Virus record (IMG/VR): IMGVR_UViG_3300045988_105378
Coordinates: 1 to 59,584 of that record
Source: a virus
DNA: 59,584 nucleotides
Reading direction: 5' to 3' (one strand)
Part shown: positions 34,669-55,757 of the stretch, piece by piece
Position numbering within the stretch: position 1 is the stretch's first letter
Layout of the letters: the number at the start of each line of letters is the position of its first letter
Program-made: the position numbers and the translations under genes
The notes under the pieces: generated by a model
The model's database searches: none
Told to the model about the DNA's origin: nothing
Seen by the model: the letters and a program-made list of their open reading frames with translations, nothing else

Positions 34669-35355
34669 ATGTATTGTTTCAAAAATGGTAATGAATGTCC
34701 TTATAGAAATATTTGTAAAAACAAGACCTCTAATGGAGATTGTTATAAACTATGTAGTAAATTAAATGAAATTGATACATTGTTTCATAATGCTAATATA
34801 CCAAGAGCATTTCTCCAACCAATAGTTTTGTATCCAGATAAAATAGATGTTTCTTCTTACGAAGTATTAAATATAATAAAGACAAATATAGTAGAAACAG
34901 TTGAAAGAGGAATGAATTATACTATACATAGTAGAATACGAGGAAATGGAAAAACTAGTTGGGGTATAAAGATATTACAAAATTACTTACATTGTATATG
35001 GACTGAACCTGGTGGAAGAACCAGAGGCTTATATGTAGATGTACCAGAGTACTTCGCACAATTAAAGGCAGAATTCGATAGTAAAGAGAAAGATGCTAAA
35101 GAATTTGCTAAAGATATAGACCAAGCAGATTTAGTTATATTTGATAATATTGATGAAAATAGATTGAGTGAGTGGGAAAGAAATGTTATGAAGCAGCATA
35201 TTAAGAGAAGAATAAACAATGGGTTGTGTAACATATTTATTATTAGAAATATTAACTCAGAATTAGTAAATATGACAGGGGAGGATATTGCCTACTATAT
35301 TCAAAGTAATAGTCAAATAATACCTCTAATTGGTAAGGGAGGTAAAGTACAATGA
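34669..35355 (+). CDS. DnaC/IstB-like AAA+ helicase loader with N-terminal Cys-rich zinc finger
   Basis: Walker A RGNGKTSWG and Walker B DLVIFDNIDE. N-terminus CFKNGNECPYRNICKNKTSNGDCYKLC. ATG 34669 after GAAGGAGG. Confidence 0.6.
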   Translation: MYCFKNGNECPYRNICKNKTSNGDCYKLCSKLNEIDTLFHNANIPRAFLQPIVLYPDKIDVSSYEVLNIIKTNIVETVERGMNYTIHSRIRGNGKTSWGIKILQNYLHCIWTEPGGRTRGLYVDVPEYFAQLKAEFDSKEKDAKEFAKDIDQADLVIFDNIDENRLSEWERNVMKQHIKRRINNGLCNIFIIRNINSELVNMTGEDIAYYIQSNSQIIPLIGKGGKVQ

Positions 35356-36623
35356 TTGAAGCACAAGTAATTAGTAAAATATTAGAAGAGAAGAATTTGG
35401 ATATATTATTGGATGAGAATATAAATTCTACATACTTTATAACATATTCAGAAGAAGCAAGATTTATATTTGGTCATTATAACGAGTATAGAACAGTTCC
35501 AACTAAGGAAACATTCTTAGGAAAGTTTAATGATTTTGAATTTACCAGTACTAAAGAAGATTGGAAATACCTTATAACCGGATTAAGAGAAGGTTATATG
35601 TTTAACCAATTAGCAATACTATTTAACAGTAGTACTAAAATAATTGAAAACAATGCCTTAGAGGGGTACCAATTACTTAAGAATAAAATATTTGAATTAG
35701 AAAATGTTAAACCAATGAGTTCTAACGATATTATTAAGAATGCCGACCAAAGATTGGATGCTTATAATAAAAAGTTAGAAAGTCCTACAAACGATGTTAT
35801 ACATATTGGATTAAAGGAAATGGACGAAAAGTTAGATGGTTGGTGTTGTGGTGAAGAATTGGTAACAGTTATGGCTAGAACTAATCAAGGTAAATCTTGG
35901 TTACTATTAGAGTTTTTAACTAATGCTTGGAAACAAGGTAAAAGAGTTGGATTATATAGTGGTGAGATGAGTGCCGAACAAATAGGTTATAGATTTGATG
36001 CTTTACATAAACATTTTAGTAATTTAAACCTAATGAGAGCCAATAAAGATGAAAAAGAGGAATATGAAGAGTACATAAAGGCATTAAAGAACAATGATAA
36101 CTGCTTTGTAGTAATAACCCCGAGAGATTTAGGTCATTTAGCAAATGTAAATGATATTGATTATATGATTAAGAAATATAACTTGGATATAGTTGGAATA
36201 GACCAATTTAGTTTGATGGAAGATTTCAGAAGTGGTAAAAATGAACAATTGAGAATTAGACTTGGAAATATAAGTGCTGATTTATTTAATTTGAGTATGA
36301 GATATAAGATCCCAATTATAGCATTATCACAGGCAAATAGAATGGCATCAAAGAATAATACCCCTGAGCTGGAACATATGGCAGAATCAGATGCTATAGC
36401 ACAAAATAGTACTAAAGTAATTAGTATGACTAGAACAGGTAATGAATTAAAAATGGCTGTGATAAAGAATAGATATGGACCTGTTGGTGATGAATTTGTA
36501 TATATGTGGGATATTGATAAAGGACAATTCAATTTTAGTAGATACGGAAGTCACGGACAAGATACTGGTGAAGAGGATAAGAGTATTGGTAGAAGACCAG
36601 TAAATGATGAAAGTCCATTCTAG
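35352..36623 (+). CDS. replicative DNA helicase (DnaB-like)
   Basis: RecA-like C-terminal domain with Walker A ARTNQGKSWLL, Walker B IVGIDQFSLME and an arginine finger region. Size is 423 aa. Confidence 0.8.
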   Translation: MIEAQVISKILEEKNLDILLDENINSTYFITYSEEARFIFGHYNEYRTVPTKETFLGKFNDFEFTSTKEDWKYLITGLREGYMFNQLAILFNSSTKIIENNALEGYQLLKNKIFELENVKPMSSNDIIKNADQRLDAYNKKLESPTNDVIHIGLKEMDEKLDGWCCGEELVTVMARTNQGKSWLLLEFLTNAWKQGKRVGLYSGEMSAEQIGYRFDALHKHFSNLNLMRANKDEKEEYEEYIKALKNNDNCFVVITPRDLGHLANVNDIDYMIKKYNLDIVGIDQFSLMEDFRSGKNEQLRIRLGNISADLFNLSMRYKIPIIALSQANRMASKNNTPELEHMAESDAIAQNSTKVISMTRTGNELKMAVIKNRYGPVGDEFVYMWDIDKGQFNFSRYGSHGQDTGEEDKSIGRRPVNDESPF

Positions 36624-38387: not shown

Positions 38388-38418
38388 TAAAATAGTTCCT
38401 TTTTTATGAAAAAATGTC

Positions 38419-38425
38419 GTATAAT
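38419..38425 (+). promoter_or_regulatory. tcgTATAAT-type promoter (family member 4; AAAAAATGTCGTATAATAATAATGGGAAG)
   Basis: Almost identical over 22 nt to the copy at 43129..43134. Confidence 0.3.
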
Positions 38426-38462
38426 AATAATGGGAAGCAAAAAAAAGAAGGAGGAAAACGCA

Positions 38463-39239
38463 ATGGCAAGATTAAACGCAGAACAAGCAGCATCATTTCC
38501 ATCAAGTGGTGGAAGAAGTAGTTTCCTATCATTACAAAATGATGGGGATTCAGCAGTAGTTAGATTTGCATATAACACTGTTGATGAATTATGTGGATGT
38601 GATTCAGTTCATACAATTAAGAATATTCAAACAGATAGATATGTTACAGTTGATTGTTTGAAAACTGATAATAGTAATCCAGATAGTGTATGTCCGTTAT
38701 GTGCGGCAGGAATTAAAATGCAAAAAACTTACTATTTACAAGTAAGAAATGAAGAAACTGGAGAAATGCAATTATGGCAAAGAGGTGAAAACTTTGTTCT
38801 TAATACATTAGTTCCAATTCTAGCAGATTATGAAGCAGATGGAACACCAATTACAGGTGTACCTATTAAAATAGTAAGAAAAGGTGCAAAGGGGGATTTG
38901 AATACTAAATATAATCTAATACCTAGACCAGTAGATGGAATGTTATTAGATCAATTCCCACAAGATATTGATGTTAGAGCAGAAGGTATTGTAAAGGAAT
39001 ATACATTCCAAGAATTACAAAACTTTATTCAAACTGGTCAATTACCTGCTAGTGGTAATGATGGTGATAATAACCAAGCAATTAGACCAAGAGGTAATAT
39101 GAATAATCCATATGATAATATGGGACAACCAGCAAGAGTTGAAAATTATGTAAATCAAGGTGGTCCAGTACAAGCACCAGTACAAGCACCTGCAACAAGA
39201 AACAGAAGAACTATTAGTGGCAATCAAGGCGGATACTAA
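38463..39239 (+). CDS. hypothetical Cys-containing protein with Q/P/N-rich C-terminus (258 aa)
   Basis: ATG at track start +57, preceded by GAAGGAGGAAAACGCA. CGC..C...CPLC cysteines. Low-complexity tail NQGGPVQAPVQAPATRNRR. Confidence 0.45.
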   Translation: MARLNAEQAASFPSSGGRSSFLSLQNDGDSAVVRFAYNTVDELCGCDSVHTIKNIQTDRYVTVDCLKTDNSNPDSVCPLCAAGIKMQKTYYLQVRNEETGEMQLWQRGENFVLNTLVPILADYEADGTPITGVPIKIVRKGAKGDLNTKYNLIPRPVDGMLLDQFPQDIDVRAEGIVKEYTFQELQNFIQTGQLPASGNDGDNNQAIRPRGNMNNPYDNMGQPARVENYVNQGGPVQAPVQAPATRNRRTISGNQGGY

Positions 39240-41524
39240 TGGCTTTATTTGATACTTATTCTAGAAGCTCTAAGGAGATGGATAGAATTTTAAAGGAAAA
39301 GGCAAATAAGAAAACCAGACCAAAAACTGGTAAATCTAATAACCTTTTAACAAGAATAAATACTATCCGAGAAAGAGTAGAAGAAAACCTAGGTGAGTAT
39401 AAAGATGATTACATAATTCTAACAAAGGATGAAGAAGTTAAAGATTATTTCTTAAAATTAAGAAATGCAAAACTAGTGGCAATAGATACAGAAACCACAG
39501 GTTTAAACTTTTTCCAAGATAAAATAGTTGGTATAAGTTTATACGCAGAGGGATTAAAAGCTTCCTATATCCCTCTAAACCATATATCAAGTATATATCA
39601 AACTAGAATTGATGGTCAGGCAAACATAGACCTAGTAAAAGAAGAAATGAAAAGGTGCATAGATTCTAACACTCAATTTATTTACCACAATGGTAAGTTT
39701 GATTTGAATGTATTAGAAACATTCTTAGGATTTAAGATGAATTGTCCATATTGGGATACCTTAGTGGCAAGTTACTTAATTACTAATGATAAAAACCAAA
39801 GAAGTTTGAAAGACCAATACAACAAGTATTGTAGTCATTTAGAAAATAAAGATAAGATAAATACTTTAAGTCATTTCCATGATTTATTTGAAGGATTGAG
39901 ATTTGATTATGTTCCTATACAATGTGGTTATATATATGCAGCAAGAGATGCATTTATGACATATAAGTTATTTGAACACCAAAGGGAATTCTTTGAACAA
40001 AAGGGAAATGAGGAATTGTATAAGTTATTTAAAGATGTTGAGGTTCCTTTAGTTCAAGTAACAGCAGATATGCAAAGAACTGGTGTTGCTATAGATATGG
40101 ATTTAGCAAAAAGATTAAAAACCGAATATGATGATAAATTAGCGGATATTACTAAACAAGTAAATGAAGAAATTCATAAGTTCGAGGATAAGATTATTAA
40201 ATATAGAATGATACATTATAATACTAAATTACAAGAACCAATAAACTTCAATAGTTCAGAACAATTAGCAATATTACTTTATGATATAATTGGTTGTGTT
40301 AATCCAGATAAGGAAAAACCGAGAGGGGTAGATGAAAAAGCATTAAAGCATATCAATATACCATTAACCAATGCAATATTAGAGTACAGAACAGTAAATA
40401 AATTGCTAAGTACATATATTGATGCTATACCAGCAAGAATAGAACCTACAGATGGTAGATTACATGCTAGTTTTAATCAAAATGGTGCAGATACTGGAAG
40501 ATTTAGTTCTAGTGAACCAAACTTACAAAATATACCGAGAGATGGTGGTATAAGATGTATGTTTAAAGCAACAGATGGTTATTATTTAGTAGGTGCCGAT
40601 TATTCACAACAGGAACCAAGAGTATTGGCTCATTTATGCCAAGATGAGAATATGATAAATGCTTATGCCACAGGTAAAGATTTATATAGTACTATGGCAA
40701 GTTTAGCATTTCATGTGCCTTATGAGCAATGTAAAGAATTTAATCCAGATGGAACTACTAACCATGAAGGTAAGGAGAGAAGAAGTAGGATTAAAGCAGT
40801 TGTTTTAGGGTTAATGTATGGTAGAGGTGATGCCAGTGTTGGTGAGCAATTAGGAATACCAGTGGAAGAAGCAAGAGAATTATCAAAGGCGTTATTTGAT
40901 GCCTTTCCAAAGATGAAGCAATATATTGAAGAAACTAAGGAAAAGGTTAAGAAGATTGGTTATACTACTACTTTATGGGGCAGAAGAAGATACTTAGAGT
41001 ATATTACTAAAGATAAATACGAATATAAGTATGGAGTAAATAGACCAATAAACTTTGATCCAATGTTAGATTCAGATGATGATGGTAGTACTGAGGTTAG
41101 CCAAGATATAAAAGATTATTACAATAATTTATTAGACAAGGCTAATTTTACTAAGAGAAAACAAATAATTGCCGATGCAGCAAGGCAAGGTATATTGATA
41201 GAAGATAATGGTTATTGGATTGCTGAGTCAGAGAGACAGGTAGTTAATAGTATAGTTCAAGGTTCAGCAGCAGATATGACTAAAAGAGCTATGGTGGCAT
41301 TATATAGAAATGAGGAACTTAATAGATTAGGTTTTAGATTGTTAATGTCAGTACATGATGAAAATATAGGGGAATGCCCTAAAGAGAATGTAAAAAGGGT
41401 TACAGAATTACTTAGTGAGATAATGATAGCAGCAAATAACAAATGTTGTGTAAAGATGAAATGTGATGCAGAGGTATCAGAGGTTTGGTATGGACCAAGC
41501 ATAGATTTGAAGGAGGTAGAATAA
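39239..41524 (+). CDS. family A DNA polymerase (3'-5' exonuclease + polymerase domains)
   Basis: Exo I VAIDTETTGL, exo II YHNGKFDLNVL, exo III YAARDAFMTYKLF. Pol motif A GADYSQQEPRVLAHL, motif B RRSRIKAVVLGLMYGRG, motif C LLMSVHDENIGE. Confidence 0.9.
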   Translation: MALFDTYSRSSKEMDRILKEKANKKTRPKTGKSNNLLTRINTIRERVEENLGEYKDDYIILTKDEEVKDYFLKLRNAKLVAIDTETTGLNFFQDKIVGISLYAEGLKASYIPLNHISSIYQTRIDGQANIDLVKEEMKRCIDSNTQFIYHNGKFDLNVLETFLGFKMNCPYWDTLVASYLITNDKNQRSLKDQYNKYCSHLENKDKINTLSHFHDLFEGLRFDYVPIQCGYIYAARDAFMTYKLFEHQREFFEQKGNEELYKLFKDVEVPLVQVTADMQRTGVAIDMDLAKRLKTEYDDKLADITKQVNEEIHKFEDKIIKYRMIHYNTKLQEPINFNSSEQLAILLYDIIGCVNPDKEKPRGVDEKALKHINIPLTNAILEYRTVNKLLSTYIDAIPARIEPTDGRLHASFNQNGADTGRFSSSEPNLQNIPRDGGIRCMFKATDGYYLVGADYSQQEPRVLAHLCQDENMINAYATGKDLYSTMASLAFHVPYEQCKEFNPDGTTNHEGKERRSRIKAVVLGLMYGRGDASVGEQLGIPVEEARELSKALFDAFPKMKQYIEETKEKVKKIGYTTTLWGRRRYLEYITKDKYEYKYGVNRPINFDPMLDSDDDGSTEVSQDIKDYYNNLLDKANFTKRKQIIADAARQGILIEDNGYWIAESERQVVNSIVQGSAADMTKRAMVALYRNEELNRLGFRLLMSVHDENIGECPKENVKRVTELLSEIMIAANNKCCVKMKCDAEVSEVWYGPSIDLKEVE

Positions 41525-42444
41525 TGGAATACTATGTAGTTAAACCGCCATATAAGAATATAGTTAATTATTGTATGGAACATAAGATTGCAATGATGCT
41601 TTCTTATTATAGTGATAAGAAAACAGCATATGATAATTTCTTAAAGCCTAGAAAGGAAAGAGCAGAAAAAGGATTAGAAAATGGTAAACTATTTATGGAT
41701 AGTGGTGCCTTCACTGCTTGGACTAAAGGTGCAACAATTGATGTTGATGAATATTGTAATTACATAAGTGAATATGGTGAATATGTGGATTACTTTGGAC
41801 AATTGGATACAATACCAAAAGTTGGTGGAACTGTAAAAGAAGCCGAAGAAGCAGCGAAAAGTACATTAGAAAACTATAAATATATGGTTTCCAAAGTAAA
41901 ATATCCAGAAAAAGTGGTTTTTACATTTCACGTAGGGGAACCAATAGAGGTATTGAAAGAGGCATTAACTTGGGGCAAGGAACATAAAGATATAATGAAA
42001 ATGATAGCGATCGGAGGTATGGTTAAAAAGAATGCCGATGATAAACATTCAGTAATAAGTAGAGTATTTAGTGCTATTAGGGAAATATACCCAGAGGTTA
42101 AAGTTCATTTATTTGGTTGTACTAGTAAACAATACTTTTTAGATTATCCAGCAACAAGTGGTGATAGTAGTAATTACATAATGTCAGCAACCAAAGGTGG
42201 GGTGTGGACACCTGGTGGTTTATATGGATTCGGTGAAAAGAAAGATAAGAACCATTACCTACTTCAAAGATATGATGTAAAAGAGGCTATTGATAAATAT
42301 TTAGAAGAAATCGGTATGCCGGCAGAATTACTAATGGAACACGCTAAGCATAGATTACTAGCAAATATTAAGTATATTGAAAGAGAGTTTTATTTAAAGA
42401 AAGTGGAGAATAAAACTAGAAGACAAACAAGGAGGTTATTCTAA
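41524..42444 (+). CDS. dpdA: DpdA-like DNA-guanine transglycosylase (TGT superfamily), C-terminal RRLF tail
   Basis: TGT active-site-like motif KLFMDSGAFTAW (compare TDSGGFQ). Immediately follows the polymerase gene and precedes the preQ0-synthesis genes. ATG 41524 after GGAGGTAGAATA. Confidence 0.6.
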   Translation: MEYYVVKPPYKNIVNYCMEHKIAMMLSYYSDKKTAYDNFLKPRKERAEKGLENGKLFMDSGAFTAWTKGATIDVDEYCNYISEYGEYVDYFGQLDTIPKVGGTVKEAEEAAKSTLENYKYMVSKVKYPEKVVFTFHVGEPIEVLKEALTWGKEHKDIMKMIAIGGMVKKNADDKHSVISRVFSAIREIYPEVKVHLFGCTSKQYFLDYPATSGDSSNYIMSATKGGVWTPGGLYGFGEKKDKNHYLLQRYDVKEAIDKYLEEIGMPAELLMEHAKHRLLANIKYIEREFYLKKVENKTRRQTRRLF

Positions 42445-43118
42445 TGTATAAGTTTGATGTTAAACCTGCTGATTATTTATTTAGTAAAGAGGAAAGGGAA
42501 AGCCGCGAAGATTGTAAAGTAGAAAATCTAGTTGGTGAGGAGGCAGTATTAAATAGTAAAGTAATTGATGATGCTTTTGAAAGAATACTAGCAGATTTTA
42601 AACCAAAACATAATAAAGTAATCTTTTCCCTATGCAGTAGTAGTAGACCATATATACTAAGTCAGAAGTGGAAATCATTCCATGAACACTTTGGTGATGT
42701 GGCAGATTTGGTTATATGTTCAAATGGTGGTATAATTCCAATTGAATATATGTGCTGTTTCCCATTTATGCAATATGATGCCCACAGGGCAAATGCCGGA
42801 ACAGACCAATTATATAAAGATAAGATGAAGGATAAACTTCAAAGGTTTTTAGATAAATTCGGTAGTAATTATGAAATTATAATTTATAGTTTCCTACCTA
42901 GTTCTAGAAATGCTGAAGCAATAAGAGAAATGAATGGAGCCGGAGGTGTTCTATTACCATCTCAAGAAGTTTATAGAGATATTATTGATAATGGATGTCC
43001 GGGGGTTAACTCAAGAAGATACCCACAATGTGCTAGACAAGCTATAAAAGAGATGGCGGAACATTTAAAGGTTGATGTTGATTTACCATTTAGTGCTAAG
43101 CAAAGACGTTTATTCTAA
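42444..43118 (+). CDS. hypothetical protein of the deazaguanine cluster (224 aa), C-terminal RRLF tail
   Basis: ATGA overlap with dpdA. Ends ...SAKQRRLF like DpdA (...RRQTRRLF). Confidence 0.5.
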   Translation: MYKFDVKPADYLFSKEERESREDCKVENLVGEEAVLNSKVIDDAFERILADFKPKHNKVIFSLCSSSRPYILSQKWKSFHEHFGDVADLVICSNGGIIPIEYMCCFPFMQYDAHRANAGTDQLYKDKMKDKLQRFLDKFGSNYEIIIYSFLPSSRNAEAIREMNGAGGVLLPSQEVYRDIIDNGCPGVNSRRYPQCARQAIKEMAEHLKVDVDLPFSAKQRRLF

Positions 43119-43911: not shown

Positions 43912-44574
43912 ATGAAGAAAAAGTTTAAAAGAAATATTAGTGAGTTACAATTATATCTAACTTTACTATTTGTAGTAAGTTTGTTAATTAGTAACATTAT
44001 TACAGCCAAGCAGGTATTATTACCTTTTGGAATTGTAATGACAGGAGCAGTATTCGTATTCCCTATTACCTATATACTTTCGGATTTATTTTCCGAAGTA
44101 TATGGATATAGATGGAGTAGAATAACTTGCTATCTAGGATTTGCAGCAAATCTATTTATGGTTTTAATATTCAGTGCGGTTATAGCAACACCAGCACCTG
44201 ATTATTGGTTAAACCAAGAAGCATTTCAAACAGTGCTAGGAAATACACCAAGAGTATTGGTGGCATCATTATTAGCATTCGTTCTAGGGGATTTCGTTAA
44301 TGATAGGGTATTTAGAAAAATGAAAGAAAAATATCCTAACAGTATAAAAGGATTTGGATGGAGAGCAATACTATCCAGTGTTTGTGGAGAATTAGTGGAT
44401 AGTTTAGTATTCTTACCAATAGCATTTATTGGTCAAATGCCTTTAAAAACATTAGCAGTTATGACAGTAATGCAAGTTTTAATTAAAACTGGATATGAAG
44501 TAATTATATTACCAATTACTAGATTAGTTGTTAAGAAAACATCAGCATACGAAAATAGAATGGGAGTGAAATAA
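43912..44574 (+). CDS. queuosine-precursor transporter (YhhQ/VUT-like membrane protein)
   Basis: 220 aa. Six hydrophobic segments. N-terminal region LLFVVSLLISNIITAKQVLLPFGIVMTGAVFVFPITYILSDLFSEVYGY resembles YhhQ-family preQ0/preQ1 importers. Confidence 0.55.
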   Translation: MKKKFKRNISELQLYLTLLFVVSLLISNIITAKQVLLPFGIVMTGAVFVFPITYILSDLFSEVYGYRWSRITCYLGFAANLFMVLIFSAVIATPAPDYWLNQEAFQTVLGNTPRVLVASLLAFVLGDFVNDRVFRKMKEKYPNSIKGFGWRAILSSVCGELVDSLVFLPIAFIGQMPLKTLAVMTVMQVLIKTGYEVIILPITRLVVKKTSAYENRMGVK

Positions 44575-45056
44575 TGGAAGTAACGGAGGCAATGGTATTT
44601 GCTAATGAGTTAGCAAAACAAAATCTTATGACAAATAACGGAGGTCCATTCGGGGCAGTGGTTATAAAAGATGGTAAGATTATAGGTGTTGGTAATAATA
44701 GAGTTATTGGAAATAATGATCCAACAGCACATGCCGAAGTAATGGCAATTAGGGATGCTTGTAAGAATTTGAATACATATGATTTAAGTGGTTGTATAAT
44801 GGTAACTAGTTGTTATCCTTGTCCAATGTGCTTAAGTGCAATTATATGGTCCAATATTAAACAAGTATACTATGGAAATACAAAAGAGGATGCAGCAGAT
44901 ATAGGATTCAGAGATGATTTCATTTATAAGTTTTTAGATAAATTAAACAATAGTGAAAAAGATGATGAAGTATTAGTATTGTATCCTTGTAATAGAATAG
45001 TAACAATGGAATCATTCCTTGAATTTAAAAACAAGGAAGATAAAACAATATATTAG
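44574..45056 (+). CDS. CDA-fold zinc deaminase, closest to the guanine deaminase (GuaD) / TadA type
   Basis: GGPFGAVVIKDGKIIGVGNN...DPTAHAEVMAIRDA...VTSCYPCPMCLSAIIW, the HAE + PCxxC zinc motifs of the cytidine-deaminase fold. Confidence 0.65.
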   Translation: MEVTEAMVFANELAKQNLMTNNGGPFGAVVIKDGKIIGVGNNRVIGNNDPTAHAEVMAIRDACKNLNTYDLSGCIMVTSCYPCPMCLSAIIWSNIKQVYYGNTKEDAADIGFRDDFIYKFLDKLNNSEKDDEVLVLYPCNRIVTMESFLEFKNKEDKTIY

Positions 45057-46747: not shown

Positions 46748-47848
46748 ATGATAAAATTAAAAACTGAAGTATTAAGAGATATGCTTAACAAGGCAGTAAA
46801 GGTTTGCTCATTTAATAAAATGTTACCTTTAACTGGACTAGTTGAAATGGAAACTAATGCAGAAGGATTATTCCTAAAAACTACGGATGGAATTACCACA
46901 ATGGTAATTAAAGAAAAAATTGAAGGATTAGAACCAGCAAGAGTAACAGTAGATGCTAATATTATTACAGCATTGGTTAATAAGATTACTACTGAAGATA
47001 TTGAATTACTTATTAGTAATAATGCTTTAACTATTACTGGTAATGGTGTATACAATTTAGAAATCAGGGTAGATGAGAGTGGAGAGATAGTTAAATTACC
47101 TGCTATCAATCAGGAGTTAGCAAACTCAGCAACTAAAGAGTTTGATTTTAAAGGTATTGTAGAAAGATTAAATATTTGTAAATCAGCAATAGCTGTTGGT
47201 GAAGATGGAAAAGAATTAAGAAATTACTATCTAAAGGATATGATAATTGCTACAGACCAAGTTAAAGTTAGTGCGGTTAGCAATATTCCATCAATGGTTA
47301 ATGAAGAACTATTTATTGGGGTTGATTTAGGTAGAATTATAATGGATTTAGGATTTATCAAAGCCAATTATGCTAGAAGTAATGAAAACCTTGTTATAGT
47401 CGGAGAAAACTTTGTTTTAAGTAGTACTATGCAATTAGATGACTTAGGAAACTATGGAAAAACATTACAAGGTGTTCAAGGTTTAATCAATTCAGTTTAT
47501 GCTAATAAAGTTACAGTTAAGAAAAATGATTTAATAAGTTTATTAGATAGACTAGGAATATTTGTTTCAGAATATGATTCAAGTAGTATAGATTTACTAT
47601 TCTTACCAGAATATATCAAAGTTACAAACCAAAAGAAAACTTGTGATGAAATTATTAAATATGAAAAGGCAGAGGTTAATGGTTTAGTTGAATTCCCGTC
47701 AGTATTAAATATAGAACATTTAAGACAATTATTGGCAGTTTTACCAGATGAAACAATTGAATTCCAATTTGATAGTTCTATGCCAACAGTTAAGATAGTA
47801 GATGGTGATATAGTTCAATTCTTAGGAATAATGGATGAGAATCAATAA
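46748..47848 (+). CDS. DNA polymerase sliding clamp (beta-clamp, DnaN-like)
   Basis: 366 aa. The N-terminal LKTEVLRDMLNKAVKVCSFNKMLPLTGLVEMETNAEGLFLKTTDGITTMV follows the DnaN N-terminal pattern. Three-domain size. Adjacent to replication genes. Confidence 0.7.
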   Translation: MIKLKTEVLRDMLNKAVKVCSFNKMLPLTGLVEMETNAEGLFLKTTDGITTMVIKEKIEGLEPARVTVDANIITALVNKITTEDIELLISNNALTITGNGVYNLEIRVDESGEIVKLPAINQELANSATKEFDFKGIVERLNICKSAIAVGEDGKELRNYYLKDMIIATDQVKVSAVSNIPSMVNEELFIGVDLGRIIMDLGFIKANYARSNENLVIVGENFVLSSTMQLDDLGNYGKTLQGVQGLINSVYANKVTVKKNDLISLLDRLGIFVSEYDSSSIDLLFLPEYIKVTNQKKTCDEIIKYEKAEVNGLVEFPSVLNIEHLRQLLAVLPDETIEFQFDSSMPTVKIVDGDIVQFLGIMDENQ

Positions 47849-48687
47849 TGGCTAGGGGATTATTTTCAGTCTCCAACCTTATAAAAGAACAGGAGGCACA
47901 AAACAACGTTGCCTCCTTATTTCTTAAAAGGATTGAAGAGGCAATAGTAAAATTAGAACCGGAATTCAAACCATCTATTTATTATAAACCATCCAGTCTA
48001 ATTTGTATGAGACAAATGTATTTTACAAGGCAAGGAATACCACCAGAGGATGAAAAGAAAACAGCAGCAGGAATAGGTATATGCGAAAGTGGTACTGACA
48101 GACATGATAGAATACAAAGAGTTTTATCACAGATGAAAGATTTAGGAATGGAATTTGAGTATATAGATGTTGAGACATACGTCAAAGAACATAACTTGAC
48201 AGATATAGAAGTAAAAGAGAAAAAGGGAATGGAAACTAAGTGTTTCAATAAAAGATATAATATTAGCTTTTTAACAGATGGTATTATTAGATTTATACCA
48301 ACTAATAAGTATTACATATTTGAGTATAAAACAGAGGTATCAATGAAGTTTAGAAATAGGGAAAGTGAAGAATTAACACATAGAACCCAAGCGGCTTGCT
48401 ATTCATTAAGTTTTGGAATAGATGATACATTGTTTGTATATGAGAATAGAGATATATGTGAGAAGAAAGCATTTCATTACCATTCAGATTACAGTGAGCA
48501 AAAAGAGAAGGTAATTGATAAGATTAAAAAATGTGAGGAGTATTTAGCAGAAAATAAAGTACCTCCAAAACTAACAAACAAAGATATAGATCCTAACTTT
48601 ATTGGAGGTAAGGACAGAGTAAGTGGTCCTAGTGCTAAGATTTGTCAATACTGTAAATATAAAAAGGAGTGTTCAAAATATCTATGA
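47848..48687 (+). CDS. PD-(D/E)XK exonuclease with Cas4/AddB-like Fe-S cysteine cluster
   Basis: N-terminal Cys (SLICMRQ) plus C-terminal CQYCKYKKEC, the C...CxxCx5C pattern. Central IFEYKT (ExK) motif. Confidence 0.55.
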   Translation: MARGLFSVSNLIKEQEAQNNVASLFLKRIEEAIVKLEPEFKPSIYYKPSSLICMRQMYFTRQGIPPEDEKKTAAGIGICESGTDRHDRIQRVLSQMKDLGMEFEYIDVETYVKEHNLTDIEVKEKKGMETKCFNKRYNISFLTDGIIRFIPTNKYYIFEYKTEVSMKFRNRESEELTHRTQAACYSLSFGIDDTLFVYENRDICEKKAFHYHSDYSEQKEKVIDKIKKCEEYLAENKVPPKLTNKDIDPNFIGGKDRVSGPSAKICQYCKYKKECSKYL

Positions 48688-52284: not shown

Positions 52285-53358
52285 ATGGCACAACCATTAG
52301 CAAATAAATATAGACCTAAAACTTTCGAAGATGTAAGTGAACAAGGTGCTATTAAAGTAATTATAGAAAATCAGATAGCTAACGATGATTTAAGAAATGC
52401 TTATCTATTTTGTGGGGGTGCTGGAACAGGTAAAACTACTTGTGCCAGAATAATTGCCGATATGATAAATGAGCATAAGGGAAGTCCAATAGAATTAGAT
52501 GCAGCAAGTAATAATTCAGTTGAGGATGTAAGAAGAATTATTACAGATTCTAAATTCAAATCAATGGATAGTAAATATAAGATATACATAATTGATGAGT
52601 GCCATAGTTTATCAAATGCAGCTTGGCAAGCATTCTTAAAATTATTAGAGGAACCGCCAAAGTTTACAGTGTTTATGTTCTGTACAACAGACCCACAGAA
52701 GATTCCCGGCACTATATTAAGTAGGGTTCAAAGATATAATTTCCAAAGAATTAGTAAAGATGGAATCATAAAGAGATTAAAATATATCATTGAACAGGAA
52801 AACAATGAAAATTATTATAATAAAGGGGATTGGCAATTAAATGACGTGGAAGCTGATAGGAAGTACTATGAGGACAATGTTATTAGATTTGAGGAGGAAG
52901 CTTTAGATTATATAGCAAAACAAGCACAAGGTGGAATGAGGGATGCTATTACTACATTGGATAAATGTTTATCTTATAGCAAAGATTTAAGTTTAAAGAA
53001 TGTAGTAGATGTATTATCAGCAGGGGTTACCCCATATGATTTAAGTGAATTTACTTTATGTTTATTAGATAAAGATACAAATGCGGCATTAGATTGCTTG
53101 AACCAATTCTTTATGAGTGGTATTGATATGGGTTTATTAGTAAATAGTTACTTTGAGTTTTTACTAAACCTACAGAAGTATTTAGTATTAGGTAGCAAAG
53201 AAATTGCTAATTTACCAGCAGATTTATTGAATAAGTATAATAAGAATGATTCTGATTACATTAGAACCTATATTACTAAATTATATTCGGTTATAACAGC
53301 ACCAAAGATGAATGTTAAATCATTACTTGAGGCGTGGGTGATTGAAAGATGTATTTAG
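52285..53358 (+). CDS. clamp loader ATPase (DnaX gamma/tau-like, AAA+)
   Basis: YRPKTFEDV...AYLFCGGAGTGKTTCARI (Walker A), IIDECHSLS (Walker B), ILSRVQRYNF (sensor / SRC-like). Confidence 0.8.
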   Translation: MAQPLANKYRPKTFEDVSEQGAIKVIIENQIANDDLRNAYLFCGGAGTGKTTCARIIADMINEHKGSPIELDAASNNSVEDVRRIITDSKFKSMDSKYKIYIIDECHSLSNAAWQAFLKLLEEPPKFTVFMFCTTDPQKIPGTILSRVQRYNFQRISKDGIIKRLKYIIEQENNENYYNKGDWQLNDVEADRKYYEDNVIRFEEEALDYIAKQAQGGMRDAITTLDKCLSYSKDLSLKNVVDVLSAGVTPYDLSEFTLCLLDKDTNAALDCLNQFFMSGIDMGLLVNSYFEFLLNLQKYLVLGSKEIANLPADLLNKYNKNDSDYIRTYITKLYSVITAPKMNVKSLLEAWVIERCI

Positions 53359-54134
53359 TTGGTCAAAAGAAAAATAAAGAGTTAATAGATAGTGGTAAAT
53401 TAGACAATGCCACTTTCATTCTTATTAAAGGTCCGAAGAACTATGGTAAAACTTATTTAACAAAGTATATTGCCGACCATTATAAAATGAATTACTTATT
53501 ATTAGATAATAAAGTTGATACAATAAGGGATTTAGTTAATAGCAGTAATATGAATAATAACTGTGTATACCATTTTAAAGATTTTGATAAATCTTCCCCA
53601 GCGGCTAAGGCGGCATTATTAAAAATAGCAGAGGAAACACCAAAGGGAATTAGAATAGTGGTTACTACTTCAGCATATAATTTTCTAGATACCTTAGTAA
53701 GTAGGGCATATGTCATTGATATGGCGGCATATTTATTTGAGGATATAAAAGAGTATGGTAATAATTTAGATGTAGAAGACGTACTAATAGACAGGTTGAA
53801 CAAGTCTTATTTGGATTTAACACCAACTTTATTATTTAAGTTAAAGAGTAGTGATTATTTAACAGAGGTATTGGATTTAGCAGATGAGACAGTAGAGTCC
53901 TTGAATCGAGGATTAAAATTAGAAGATATTTCCAGAATATCAGCAAAGTTTTGGAAAGATGATAAGGATAGGTTACTACTTTATCTAGATATACTAAGTA
54001 GAAGTAGTCATAGAATAAACAAGGATTATTATAAGGTGGTACTGGCAGTGGAGTATACTAAATCAATGTTAAATAGGATTGCTATAAGTAATTATAGAAA
54101 CTTAGTACATAATATGTTAATGGAGATGGTATAA
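53349..54134 (+). CDS. clamp loader subunit (delta-prime-like, putative)
   Basis: FILIKGPKNYGKTYL P-loop-like. Sits between the DnaX-like and delta-like genes. Confidence 0.45.
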   Translation: MYLVGQKKNKELIDSGKLDNATFILIKGPKNYGKTYLTKYIADHYKMNYLLLDNKVDTIRDLVNSSNMNNNCVYHFKDFDKSSPAAKAALLKIAEETPKGIRIVVTTSAYNFLDTLVSRAYVIDMAAYLFEDIKEYGNNLDVEDVLIDRLNKSYLDLTPTLLFKLKSSDYLTEVLDLADETVESLNRGLKLEDISRISAKFWKDDKDRLLLYLDILSRSSHRINKDYYKVVLAVEYTKSMLNRIAISNYRNLVHNMLMEMV

Positions 54135-55102
54135 TGAAATCACTGATAGATTTAAAGAAAGAATTGAAAGAAGGTAATCTAACACAGAATTTATATATAT
54201 TTACTGGTGAAGAGAATTACATAAGACGTTTATACTATTTGAAAATCGGTGAAATATACGGCAATTTAAAGAGTTTGGATACAGTTAGTAATTTATATAG
54301 GGAACTTGAGAAAAGGGCTCTATTCGGTAAGAAACCGGCATATATCGTATATAACGATGTAGATTTTCTTAAACAAAAGGAAAAAGTATATGAAAGACTT
54401 GTAAGACTTTGTAAAGGTCATGTGGTAATTTTAGTATTCGAAGAGATACCAGAGAAAGGACCATTTAGAAATGTACTGGATGATTATATAACAGTATTTA
54501 ATAGAGTATCAGATGATATTGCTATGAAATATGTAACTAGGGAGTATCCAATTAGAGATAGAATGTTAGTACAAAAAATCGCTTTCAATTGTTATAATTC
54601 GTATAATAATATCATAGAGGAGATGAATAAGTACAAATGGTTTAAGAATCAAGAAAAATATGATTGTGAAGTAAACCAAATGGAGTACAATGATGATGCA
54701 ATAGATGCAATGACTTATGCTTGTCTATTTAATGACAGGAAGGTAATACCAACAGCAAAAGAATTTGCTAATGCTTTTCTAAGAAGAGATGGTGGATTAT
54801 TAGCAAAGTATATGAAATTATTAAAAGATGAAAATATACTAGGTTATTTACCGGAGTTATATAACACAATTGTATTAGCATTATACTTAAAAATCTATGG
54901 TAAATGGGATGGTGGAACTAGAGCTTATAATGCCGGTGAATACTGGGGCAGAATAAAGGAAATAAGAGATTTCAATATTAGTTATACCAAAACAGATTTA
55001 CTTGATATAAGGTACTTATTATACCAATTAGACCTAGATGTAAGGAGTGGTAGAATGAGAGCTGATTTGGCGTGGGATTGGTTGATAGGGGTGATACTAT
55101 AA
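54134..55102 (+). CDS. clamp loader delta-like subunit (putative)
   Basis: The N-terminal NLYIFTGEENYIRRLYYLKIGEIYG resembles the HolA N-terminus. Call by synteny. Confidence 0.45.
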   Translation: MKSLIDLKKELKEGNLTQNLYIFTGEENYIRRLYYLKIGEIYGNLKSLDTVSNLYRELEKRALFGKKPAYIVYNDVDFLKQKEKVYERLVRLCKGHVVILVFEEIPEKGPFRNVLDDYITVFNRVSDDIAMKYVTREYPIRDRMLVQKIAFNCYNSYNNIIEEMNKYKWFKNQEKYDCEVNQMEYNDDAIDAMTYACLFNDRKVIPTAKEFANAFLRRDGGLLAKYMKLLKDENILGYLPELYNTIVLALYLKIYGKWDGGTRAYNAGEYWGRIKEIRDFNISYTKTDLLDIRYLLYQLDLDVRSGRMRADLAWDWLIGVIL

Positions 55103-55266
55103 TGGAAATAGTAAGAAGCTATCAATTCAAAAAAGAAGATAGGTGTAAGAGATGTGGGAGGAGATTAAAGAATAATGAATCCCAATTATTAGGTTACGGT
55201 CCTAGTTGTTACAAAAAATATTTAAAAGAACAAAGAGGAAGGCGAAAGGATAGGAGGTTATTTTAG
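55072..55266 (+). CDS. small zinc-ribbon protein with C-terminal RRLF tail (64 aa)
   Basis: CKRCGRRL...GPSCYKK. Ends KDRRLF. Confidence 0.45.
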   Translation: MGLVDRGDTIMEIVRSYQFKKEDRCKRCGRRLKNNESQLLGYGPSCYKKYLKEQRGRRKDRRLF

Positions 55267-55757
55267 TGGAAGAGGAAAAGGTAAAGAAAACAATAGATAG
55301 AAAATTAACTGATATACAAGAAAACTTTTGTAAGTTAATTGCTACACAAGGATTAGAACCATTAGATGCTATGTTACAGGTATATCCATCTAGAAAAGGT
55401 TATAGTACTGGAAACCAAAACCAATTACTTAAGAAACTAATGAACAATCCTAGAGTGGTGGCAAGGTTAAAAGAGTTATACACTGAAATTAGAAATAATG
55501 AAGTTCTAGGGGATATGTATAACTTTGATAAAGGTGTTAAGTTATTAACTGAAAACATTGAACTAGCCAAGAAAAGAATTGAAAATGAAGGGGTCTTAAC
55601 TGAGTCAATCCATCGTATAATATTAACATCAGTCCAAGAACTGAATAGAATGTATGGATTCAATATAGTAGATAGAAATGGTGGAACCGGAGGTACTATG
55701 AATGTTACATTCGTTAAAGTAGATAAAACGGAAGGAGATGTTAAAATTGGCAGCTAA
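55266..55757 (+). CDS. terS: terminase small subunit (Terminase_2-like), GTG start
   Basis: LTDIQENFCKLIATQGLEPLDAMLQVYPSRKGYSTGNQNQLLKKLMNNPRVVARLKELYTEIR fits the TerS N-terminal DNA-binding pattern (LT.kQ..F...Y...gN.t.A...AGYS.k.A...a..LLkn.kV...i.e). Confidence 0.55.
   Translation: MEEEKVKKTIDRKLTDIQENFCKLIATQGLEPLDAMLQVYPSRKGYSTGNQNQLLKKLMNNPRVVARLKELYTEIRNNEVLGDMYNFDKGVKLLTENIELAKKRIENEGVLTESIHRIILTSVQELNRMYGFNIVDRNGGTGGTMNVTFVKVDKTEGDVKIGS

Follow-up and report, generated by a model that had tools for sequence, protein, structure and literature searches.

Three unrelated proteins encoded by the viral sequence IMGVR_UViG_3300045988_105378 (IMG/VR; the whole stretch of 59,584 nt is referred to here as the window) end in the same tetrapeptide, RRLF: a DpdA-like DNA guanine transglycosylase, an ArcS-like protein and a small DUF6011 zinc-ribbon protein. 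All three are found in the replication and DNA-modification module of this phage (Table 1). Their shared ends had been pointed out in an earlier note on this DNA, and both the translations and the tail codons confirm them. From a survey of homologues and neighboring proteins we conclude with high confidence that the tail is a conserved, disordered and portable motif on DNA-modifying enzymes; it consists of two to four basic residues, any residue, and Leu-Phe with a free carboxylate, and it closes a disordered stretch of about 15 residues. Judged from sequence and gene order, its receptor is probably the sliding clamp encoded by the phage itself.

Conservation and Anatomy of the Tail

A chance origin, which the earlier note had considered very unlikely, finds little room in the numbers: when 92 tetrapeptides were sampled at random from the window proteome, a triple match arose in 0.06% of trials, and the probability of at least three LF ends in the window is 0.005. 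Over all six frames, LF closes only nine open reading frames (ORFs) of at least 25 aa; three of these are real genes, namely those for DpdA, the ArcS-like protein and DUF6011.

The note had named absence of the tail from homologues in related phages among the observations that would speak against its reading; instead, the tail is kept. An LF end is present in 57 of the 61 DpdA homologues (30-97% identity), and basic residues followed by a terminal LF are present in 39 of 46 ArcS-like homologues, down to 43% identity; three more of the latter end in ..GLF[SN]V, and seven more distant ones are without the tail. The dpdA genes in IMG/VR and other fetched loci give a similar picture, with 73 of 81 ending in LF, and the DpdA proteins of E. 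coli phage CAjan and Streptococcus phage Dp-1 are LF-terminated too. A DpdA profile search of 1.84 billion representatives returned 6975 family members; among the best 147 of these (at 50% identity), which were inspected, 85 end in LF and most others in LW, LL, LI or LF plus two residues. Leu-Trp ends (..SLW, ..DLW, ..KLW) are frequent among the DpdA representatives and could be the form that this tail takes in particular lineages. Close homologues of the DUF6011 protein end in RRLF or GGGLF, and distant ones keep K/R-x-LF as an internal element about 10-15 residues after the zinc ribbon (KKLFTIDKET, LLKPLFVV...).

The assignment of the three proteins is based on domain matches, genomic context and structure prediction. 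No Pfam match and no PDB sequence match was obtained for the DpdA-like protein, and because of the latter an AlphaFold 2 (AF2) model was used to place its tail. This model has a predicted local distance difference test (pLDDT) score of 91 and shows the tRNA guanine transglycosylase (TGT) fold by Foldseek (E 1.5e-10, probability 1.0); a modeled TGT-like fold, together with a gene located near the preQ0 synthesis genes (QueC, QueD, QueE and FolE are encoded downstream), points to the DpdA class. The ArcS-like protein has a PF17884 domain, its gene lies beside dpdA and queC, and the phage DUF5591 domain has been equated with the ArcS core (PMC10516641); we predict from its sequence that it is a preQ0-to-archaeosine enzyme acting on DNA. 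The third protein carries the DUF6011 signature CxxCG...G[YF]GPxC, whose Cys and Gly positions do not vary in the family alignment. In the AF2 models of DpdA and the ArcS-like protein (pLDDT 91.3 for the latter) the last helix stops 15-16 residues short of the C-terminus. The remainder is coil, comprising residues 292-306 in DpdA, with pLDDT <50 at 297-303, and residues 209-224 in the ArcS-like protein, with pLDDT <50 at 217-220. Conserved, disordered in the models and set on DNA-acting enzymes in related phages, the tail has the properties of a docking-type peptide, as the note had proposed.

The conserved core is made up of basic residues, any residue, Leu, and a last residue with a free carboxylate, which is Phe or alternatively Trp, Leu or Ile. 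Between positions -6 and -3, the 81 unique LF tails have 2.2 basic residues, against a background of 0.74, and 0.10 acidic residues, against 0.68. This basic enrichment, on carriers which all act on DNA, would also suit a non-specific DNA-binding arm; equally, hydrophobic C-termini can be protease signals, and the tail could then be a degradation or turnover tag, in either case without a dedicated pocket. We consider both improbable. The basic part is variable or missing in some tails (..QELF, ..QVNLF, ..SLLF) whereas the terminal Leu-Phe is nearly invariant, and since the motif is also found at N-termini (MALFD, MPLFD) and internally, a docking pocket fits better than a carboxy-terminal degron or a charge effect.

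Overlap with Ribosome-Binding Sites

An artefact of ribosome-binding sites was our main null hypothesis, and the codons were examined one by one in 81 dpdA homologues. In the DpdA and DUF6011 tails the Arg-Arg codons AGGAGG double as the Shine-Dalgarno (SD) site of the overlapping downstream gene (aggaggttattcTAATG, aggaggttattttaGTG); the first serves the gene starting at 42444 and the second the GTG at 55266, and both tails read AGGAGG-TTATT[CT] and then a stop codon which overlaps the next start. The identical tails could thus be a by-product of translational coupling, in which AGGAGG and an AT-rich spacer before an overlapping start happen to read RRLF: two of the three tails have the form aggaggttatt[ct]ta[ag]TG, coupled junctions number 47 in the window, and it is common for a ribosome-binding site to lie within coding sequence. 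Such an origin is nonetheless highly improbable. AGGAGG lies inside the upstream coding sequence at nine coupled junctions, and RRLF results from only two of these. The ArcS-like tail is encoded by AGA-CGT-TTA-TTC, with no ribosome-binding site and no coupling, the next gene having its own site 40 nt off. SD-like tail codons are present in only six of the 73 LF-ending dpdA genes, and neither an SD site nor an adjacent start in 56; in the relatives L002 and L004 the next gene begins 18-19 nt past the dpdA stop, and gp7 of Streptococcus phage Dp-1 (..NRQRRLF) precedes an annotated terminator. Phages of Proteobacteria and Cyanobacteria, moreover, retain LF where identity has fallen to 25-30%. As a full explanation, the artefact fails on homologue conservation, on the scarcity of SD-like tails and on the uncoupled ArcS-like tail. 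The dual coding of AGGAGG as an SD site helps to explain why RR is identical in two genes, and this is the most that it accounts for; it does not account for the tail.

A DNA repeat or regulatory element was also considered and is ruled out, the 14-mer AGGAGGTTATTYTA being confined to the DpdA and DUF6011 tails and found nowhere else in the window.

Distribution of the Motif on other Proteins

LF is by far the commonest C-terminal dipeptide in the 86 DpdA-centred loci that we analysed, ending 116 of the 2099 proteins counted. The excess persists when DpdA is left out: 43 of the 2018 remaining proteins end in LF where 8.6 are expected (P 4e-17), and the reversed dipeptide FL ends two. The carriers comprise DUF6884 proteins, a CxxCxxCC/DpdM homologue, an S-adenosylmethionine (SAM) methyltransferase, N6_N4 DNA methylases, a DndC-like PAPS-reductase protein and a GNAT-like protein, and many of them are encoded between dpdA and the clamp gene. 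Small GNAT-type acetyltransferases encoded next to dpdA end in ..RRELF or ..GGKLF (R5C gp088, L113:3767-4102; L062:9348-9821), and their substrate is possibly a DNA base modification.

The motif is also found beside clamp genes in loci without DpdA. In 30 such clamp-anchored loci (800 proteins), gathered with the closer clamp alignment A6, 29 proteins end in LF against 3.4 expected, among them N6_N4 methylases of four kinds, two C5 cytosine methylases, PAPS_reduct proteins and Nlig-Ia. The last of these carries the motif either at the C-terminus (..KKKKGGLF, ..ASRRLF) or at the N-terminus (MPLFD.., MNLFS..), depending on the member, which is strong evidence for a movable module. Nlig-Ia, domain Ia of NAD-dependent ligase, occurs as a stand-alone protein in phiCTP1 (gp60, L001:15550-15906) and at L142:19503-19871 and L146:12070-12534.

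Among the roughly 40 early proteins of Cellulophaga phage phiSM, LF ends are confined to DpdM (..QVNLF) and a ParB-like nuclease (..SVNLF), the two proteins that flank DpdA. The tail-less DpdA gene of phiSM overlaps the gene for the LF-tailed ParB-like nuclease (L116, gp51-gp53). A ParB_N protein is likewise encoded ahead of dpdA in Typha, in Sonali and in the two contigs without a clamp, L117 and L118; DpdA and ParB may be partners.

The Sliding Clamp as Candidate Receptor

The presence of a clamp gene in the phage, as read in the earlier note, stands: profile A2 matches DnaN of B. subtilis (4TR6) with E 8e-22 over positions 1-347 of 359, the window clamp matches Pfam DNA_pol3_beta with E 2.9e-6, and the homology to beta clamps is full-length and covers three domains. 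The phage also encodes a three-subunit clamp loader. Several lines of evidence point to this clamp as the probable partner of the tail.

The first is gene order. dpdA is located 0-5 kb upstream of the clamp gene in Dp-1, Flasso, CAjan, Iggy, BA3, RHEph06, Me-ZS1, PaMx25, pVco-14 and R5C (in which the clamp is gp093, HMM E 2e-21, from a hidden Markov model search), and the DpdAs of all these phages end in LF (..QRRLF, ..QGKLF, ..VMELF, ..IQELF, ..IQGLF, ..EQRLF, ..QPELF, ..TQGLF, ..QVSLF). The DpdA of Vibrio phage 83AMN ends in ..KLELF; this phage was left out of the synteny list. In all, 64 clamp ORFs were found across the 86 analysed loci. Tail-less DpdAs were met in Typha, Sonali, L117 and L118, and in these we could find no clamp or polymerase: for the temperate Mycobacterium phage Typha neither is annotated and the genome parts searched gave no HMM match, the second named phage is an Arthrobacter phage, and the L117 and L118 contigs carry a tail-less ArcS as well.

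The second is the occurrence of the motif in the replication proteins themselves. The delta-like clamp-loader subunit (profile A4 against B. subtilis delta 3ZH9_B, E 2.8e-16) contains an internal RALF four residues before the AYIVY strand; judged by this spacing, LF-GKKP-AYIVY in the phage (..EKRALF-GKKP-AYIVY..) is in the same register as LF-ASRQ-TLLLL in E. coli delta (..AMSLF-ASRQ-TLLLL..), whose L73-F74 pair inserts into the beta pocket in PDB 1JQL. The delta-like subunits of close relatives have KRSLF or KKPLF at this point, which is the tail motif. The polymerase starts with MALFDTY, and M-x(0-3)-[LM]F is found in 44 of 92 homologues (MALFD/N.., MSGLFNLPPR..; MALFNF in phiCTP1 gp49), an approximate count, as are all N-terminal counts here, since genes in fetched loci were called by a longest-ORF rule. 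The Cas4-like nuclease starts with MARGLFSV (47848..47871), which is kept in close relatives and is MSRRLLNL in others. Both heads, on proteins that count as classical clients of a clamp, are N-terminal versions of the LF motif.

The third concerns the clamp. In an alignment to E. coli beta, one of low identity, the equivalents of subsite 1 keep their character (L155->L, T172->T, R176->K, L177->V/I, V360->L/I) and those of subsite 2 do not. The mean charge of the clamp C-terminus is -3.5 (63 loci) and that of the DpdA tails +2.65, and clamps which end in ..GMRL or ..GERV go with neutral or acidic tails such as ..QELF.

DnaN-type phage clamps end in acidic residues (..IMDENQ in the window, 47831..47845; consensus LLEDxx), and E. 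coli beta, in which the clamp C-terminus lines the groove, ends in ..PMRL. The ..GMRL and ..GERV ends belong to the Queuovirinae-type clamps of 317-327 aa. A shorter clamp of this size lies directly after dpdA in phages of Gram-negative and cyanobacterial hosts (L094 and L110-L114: CAjan, Me-ZS1, PaMx25, pVco-14 and R5C), and its partner in CAjan is annotated as a family B polymerase. An HMM of the Firmicute-phage DnaN misses the 317-327 aa clamps, which give only a weak match to Pfam DNA_pol3_beta_2; a single HMM for both clamp types was thus not a workable choice.

If the clamp is the receptor, the Leu-Phe pair would insert into the hydrophobic pocket (subsite 1) of the phage DnaN-type clamp, and the basic residues of the tail would pair with the acidic C-terminus of the clamp. 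DpdA, which would insert preQ0, ArcS, which would convert preQ0 to archaeosine, and the DUF6011 protein would ride the clamps left on newly replicated DNA; there they would share, or compete for, the site of the polymerase MALFD head, the Cas4-like nuclease and the delta RALF element. Phage DNA would in this way be modified right behind the fork, and modification would be co-replicational, as the note had inferred.

A number of observations weigh against this assignment. The set of phages lacking both clamp and tail is small (Typha, Sonali and two partial contigs), and the phiSM DpdA has no tail although phiSM has a clamp. The phage clamp does not conserve the equivalents of subsite 2, and the mapping of the pocket is uncertain because the identity to E. 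coli beta is very low. The charge covariation comes from few independent lineages and has exceptions in pVco-14 and Flasso. One motif would have to serve two clamp types, given that the 317-327 aa clamps are not detectably related by HMM. Nor is the bacterial consensus matched: the Q/K-x-x-L-F form put forward in the earlier note does not hold, Gln not being conserved and position 2 being basic. Gln at position 1 is found in the ArcS-like protein only (QRRLF, Q at -5), DpdA having TRRLF and DUF6011 DRRLF, and K/R prevails at positions -5 and -4 of the homologues; position 2, hydrophobic (Leu) in the bacterial motif, is Arg or Lys in the window and in most homologues.

The tail could also be a genuine docking peptide for another hub of the replisome or of DNA metabolism, be it the polymerase, the single-stranded DNA-binding protein (SSB), the DnaB-like helicase, host DnaN alone or a complex of modification enzymes. 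The evidence for a conserved, portable and disordered motif fits such a receptor equally well, and the unmatched clamp-binding consensus favors it; in addition, homologues of the helicase, SSB and primase use other terminal peptides (acidic residues with [VIP]F, or EEY), and because replisomes use these too, several docking sites must exist. We rate a different hub as unlikely, though not negligible, on five grounds: in the delta subunit K/R-x-LF occupies the position of clamp contact; the polymerase has the motif at its own N-terminus, which one would not expect of a receptor; the LF tails, being basic, form a class apart from the acidic tails of helicase and SSB; dpdA-clamp synteny is tight across distant phages; and the acidic C-terminus of the clamp complements the basic tails.

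The second class of terminal peptides deserves description in its own right. Helicase homologues end in acidic residues and VF, SPF or EEY (the window helicase, 35352..36623, ends in ..NDESPF), SSB homologues in ..DVF, ..DKF or ..GGY, and primase homologues in ..EEIF or ..KIIF (loci L002-L085). These ends recall the C-terminal tails of SSB and the tails of T7 gp4 and gp2.5, and suggest that terminal peptides hold the replisome together.

With the clamp as receptor, a broader proposal can be made, which we advance tentatively and as a whole. The motif (basic residues, any residue, Leu, and Phe or Trp, at a free terminus) might be an address tag which recruits an entire DNA-modification toolkit to the phage clamp: DpdA, ArcS, DpdM, N6/N4 and C5 methylases, DndC-like PAPS reductases, DUF6884 proteins and ParB-like nucleases. 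Both hypermodification and methylation would thereby be tied physically to the replisome, in what could be called a prokaryotic-virus counterpart of DNMT1-PCNA. In the same proposal the DUF6011 protein would connect a later step, either late transcription or packaging, with the clamps that replicated DNA carries, by analogy with T4 gp33 and gp55.

Organization of the Replication and Modification Module

The window represents a phage of about 59.6 kb with 31% G+C and about 92 called genes, which lie nearly throughout on the + strand. Contigs 94-99% identical to it at the protein level are present in IMG/VR, and Clostridium phage phiCTP1 is a distant relative. The features of the module are collected in Table 1.

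Table 1. Positions of the replication and DNA-modification genes of the window and of the LF elements within them.
Feature	Position	Strand	Match or remark
SSB-like protein	38406..39239		
Family A DNA polymerase, conserved N-terminal MALFD head (39239..39253)	39239..41524	+	N-terminus kept in relatives
DpdA-like DNA guanine transglycosylase, 306 aa	41524..42444	+	PHROG 887 queuine tRNA-ribosyltransferase, E 6e-35
DpdA end ...RRQTRRLF	tail codons 42430..42441	+	AGGAGGTTATTC
ArcS-like core domain (DUF5591), 224 aa	42444..43118	+	Pfam PF17884, E 5.8e-10, above gathering score
ArcS-like end ...SAKQRRLF	tail codons 43104..43115	+	AGACGTTTATTC
QueC, Vut_1/YhhQ-type transporter, cytidine-deaminase-fold protein, QueD, QueE, FolE	in that order, from the ArcS-like gene to the clamp gene		
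DnaN-type sliding clamp, 366 aa, C-terminus ..IMDENQ	46748..47848	+	PHROG 947 processivity factor
Cas4-like exonuclease, N-terminal MARGLFSV, directly after the clamp gene	47848..48687	+	PHROG 1706/1990
Two AAA+ clamp-loader subunits	52285..53358, 53349..54134	+	Pfam DNA_pol3_delta2, E 1.2e-25 and 2.5e-7
Delta-like clamp-loader subunit, 322 aa	54134..55102	+	PHROG 20214 clamp loader
Internal RALF, delta-like residues 61-64	54314..54325	+	register of E. coli delta L73-F74
DUF6011 zinc ribbon, 54 aa (ATG 55102) or 64 aa (GTG 55072)	to 55266	+	PF19474, E 1.7e-11
DUF6011 end ...RRKDRRLF	tail codons 55252..55263	+	AGGAGGTTATTT
163-aa gene without family match, after the DUF6011 gene	55266..55757	+	

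The 7-deazaguanine set is complete in the window, with DpdA, the ArcS-like protein, QueC, the Vut_1/YhhQ transporter, QueD, QueE and FolE. The transporter (E 2e-41) and the cytidine/dCMP-deaminase-fold protein (E 4e-27) lie within the queuosine-precursor cluster, at 43912..45056; the published phage 7-deazaguanine pathways consulted give no role to either of them. The longest ORF of dpdA starts at TTG 41485 and overlaps the polymerase gene by 40 nt; since the homologues are uniformly 306 aa, the real start is ATG 41524. The DUF6011 gene sits between the clamp-loader genes and the 163-aa gene, and its homologues occur in both lengths, with starts of the 54-aa type and of the 64-aa type.

Implications for Phage DNA Modification

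In phages, modification of DNA by 7-deazaguanines and by methyl groups is described as post-replicative, and modification levels differ greatly between DpdA subfamilies. If the proposed docking is correct, a clamp-tethering tail would give a concrete mechanism by which the enzymes keep pace with fast phage replication, and would add DNA-modifying enzymes to the clients of bacterial-type clamps. A terminal LF encoded beside a clamp gene would serve as a simple sequence marker for new phage DNA-modification enzymes. Heterologous expression of a DpdA without its cognate clamp might also under-report activity, for which phiSM DpdA1, inactive in E. coli (PMC10516641), would be an example.

Comparison with Known Systems

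Phage 7-deazaguanine DNA modification systems (DpdA, FolE, QueD, QueE, QueC, ArcS, DpdM) were reportedly described by Hutinet in 2019 and Cui in 2023. DpdA, phage ArcS and DpdM are defined in PMC10516641, without mention of the tail, the clamp or dpdA-clamp synteny. Full-text searches of the literature brought up no paper that connects DpdA, 7-deazaguanine or phage methylases with a clamp, and the Dp-1 host-interaction paper mentions neither gp7 nor DnaN.

The beta-clamp-binding motif of bacteria (QL[SD]LF / QLxLxL), of which the QLGLF-COOH end of Pol II is an example, is the obvious standard of comparison. Both it and the phage tail are short disordered peptides which end in Leu-Phe, are often terminal, and are common to unrelated clients; the LF of the phage delta-like subunit is in the register of E. 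coli delta, and the candidate receptor is a DnaN homologue. Leu-Phe stands at positions 4-5, as in the bacterial motif (in 81 of 81 unique LF tails, by construction), on an accessible disordered terminus in the AF2 models of DpdA and ArcS. The differences are that a basic run here precedes LF, that the clamp C-terminus is acidic, and that the equivalents of subsite 2 are not conserved. Some tails from Gram-negative phages come nearer to the canonical form (KLELF, VMELF). Because the Gln and the position-2 residue are lacking, we do not file the tail as a canonical member of the beta motif. We know of no DNA-modification enzymes among the clients of the beta clamp.

For an enzyme of this kind the parallel is eukaryotic. 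DNMT1 and DNA ligase I bind PCNA through the PCNA-interacting protein (PIP) box, and the concept is the same in that a DNA-modifying enzyme is tethered to a clamp and new DNA is modified behind the fork. The PIP box of ligase I lies at the extreme N-terminus, as do the Nlig-Ia and polymerase heads described here. The PIP box consensus Qxx[LIM]xx[FY][FY], however, fits none of the three tails, PCNA belongs to a different clamp family, and in the phage tethering is predicted from sequence.

The closest functional precedent, by analogy, is gp45 of phage T4 and RB69. The T4 clamp binds gp43 and gp55 by the SLDFL[FY] tail that they have in common, and gp33 by its tail likewise; we verified the ends of gp43 (..KASLDFLFG) and gp55 (..SPSLDFLYEAND). 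The likeness is that a phage clamp is proposed to meet one hydrophobic C-terminal peptide on unrelated proteins, factors outside replication included. The T4 clamp-loader protein gp62 (L200, gene 62) begins with MSLFKDD, like the MALFD and MPLFD heads, which may be coincidence. The T4 glucosyltransferases have no such tail in their sequences. The two systems differ in that gp45 is a PCNA-like trimer and not DnaN-like, in that its motif is LDFL[FY] and not basic-x-LF, and in that the known clients of gp45 are the polymerase and late-transcription factors, whereas those proposed here are DNA-modifying enzymes.

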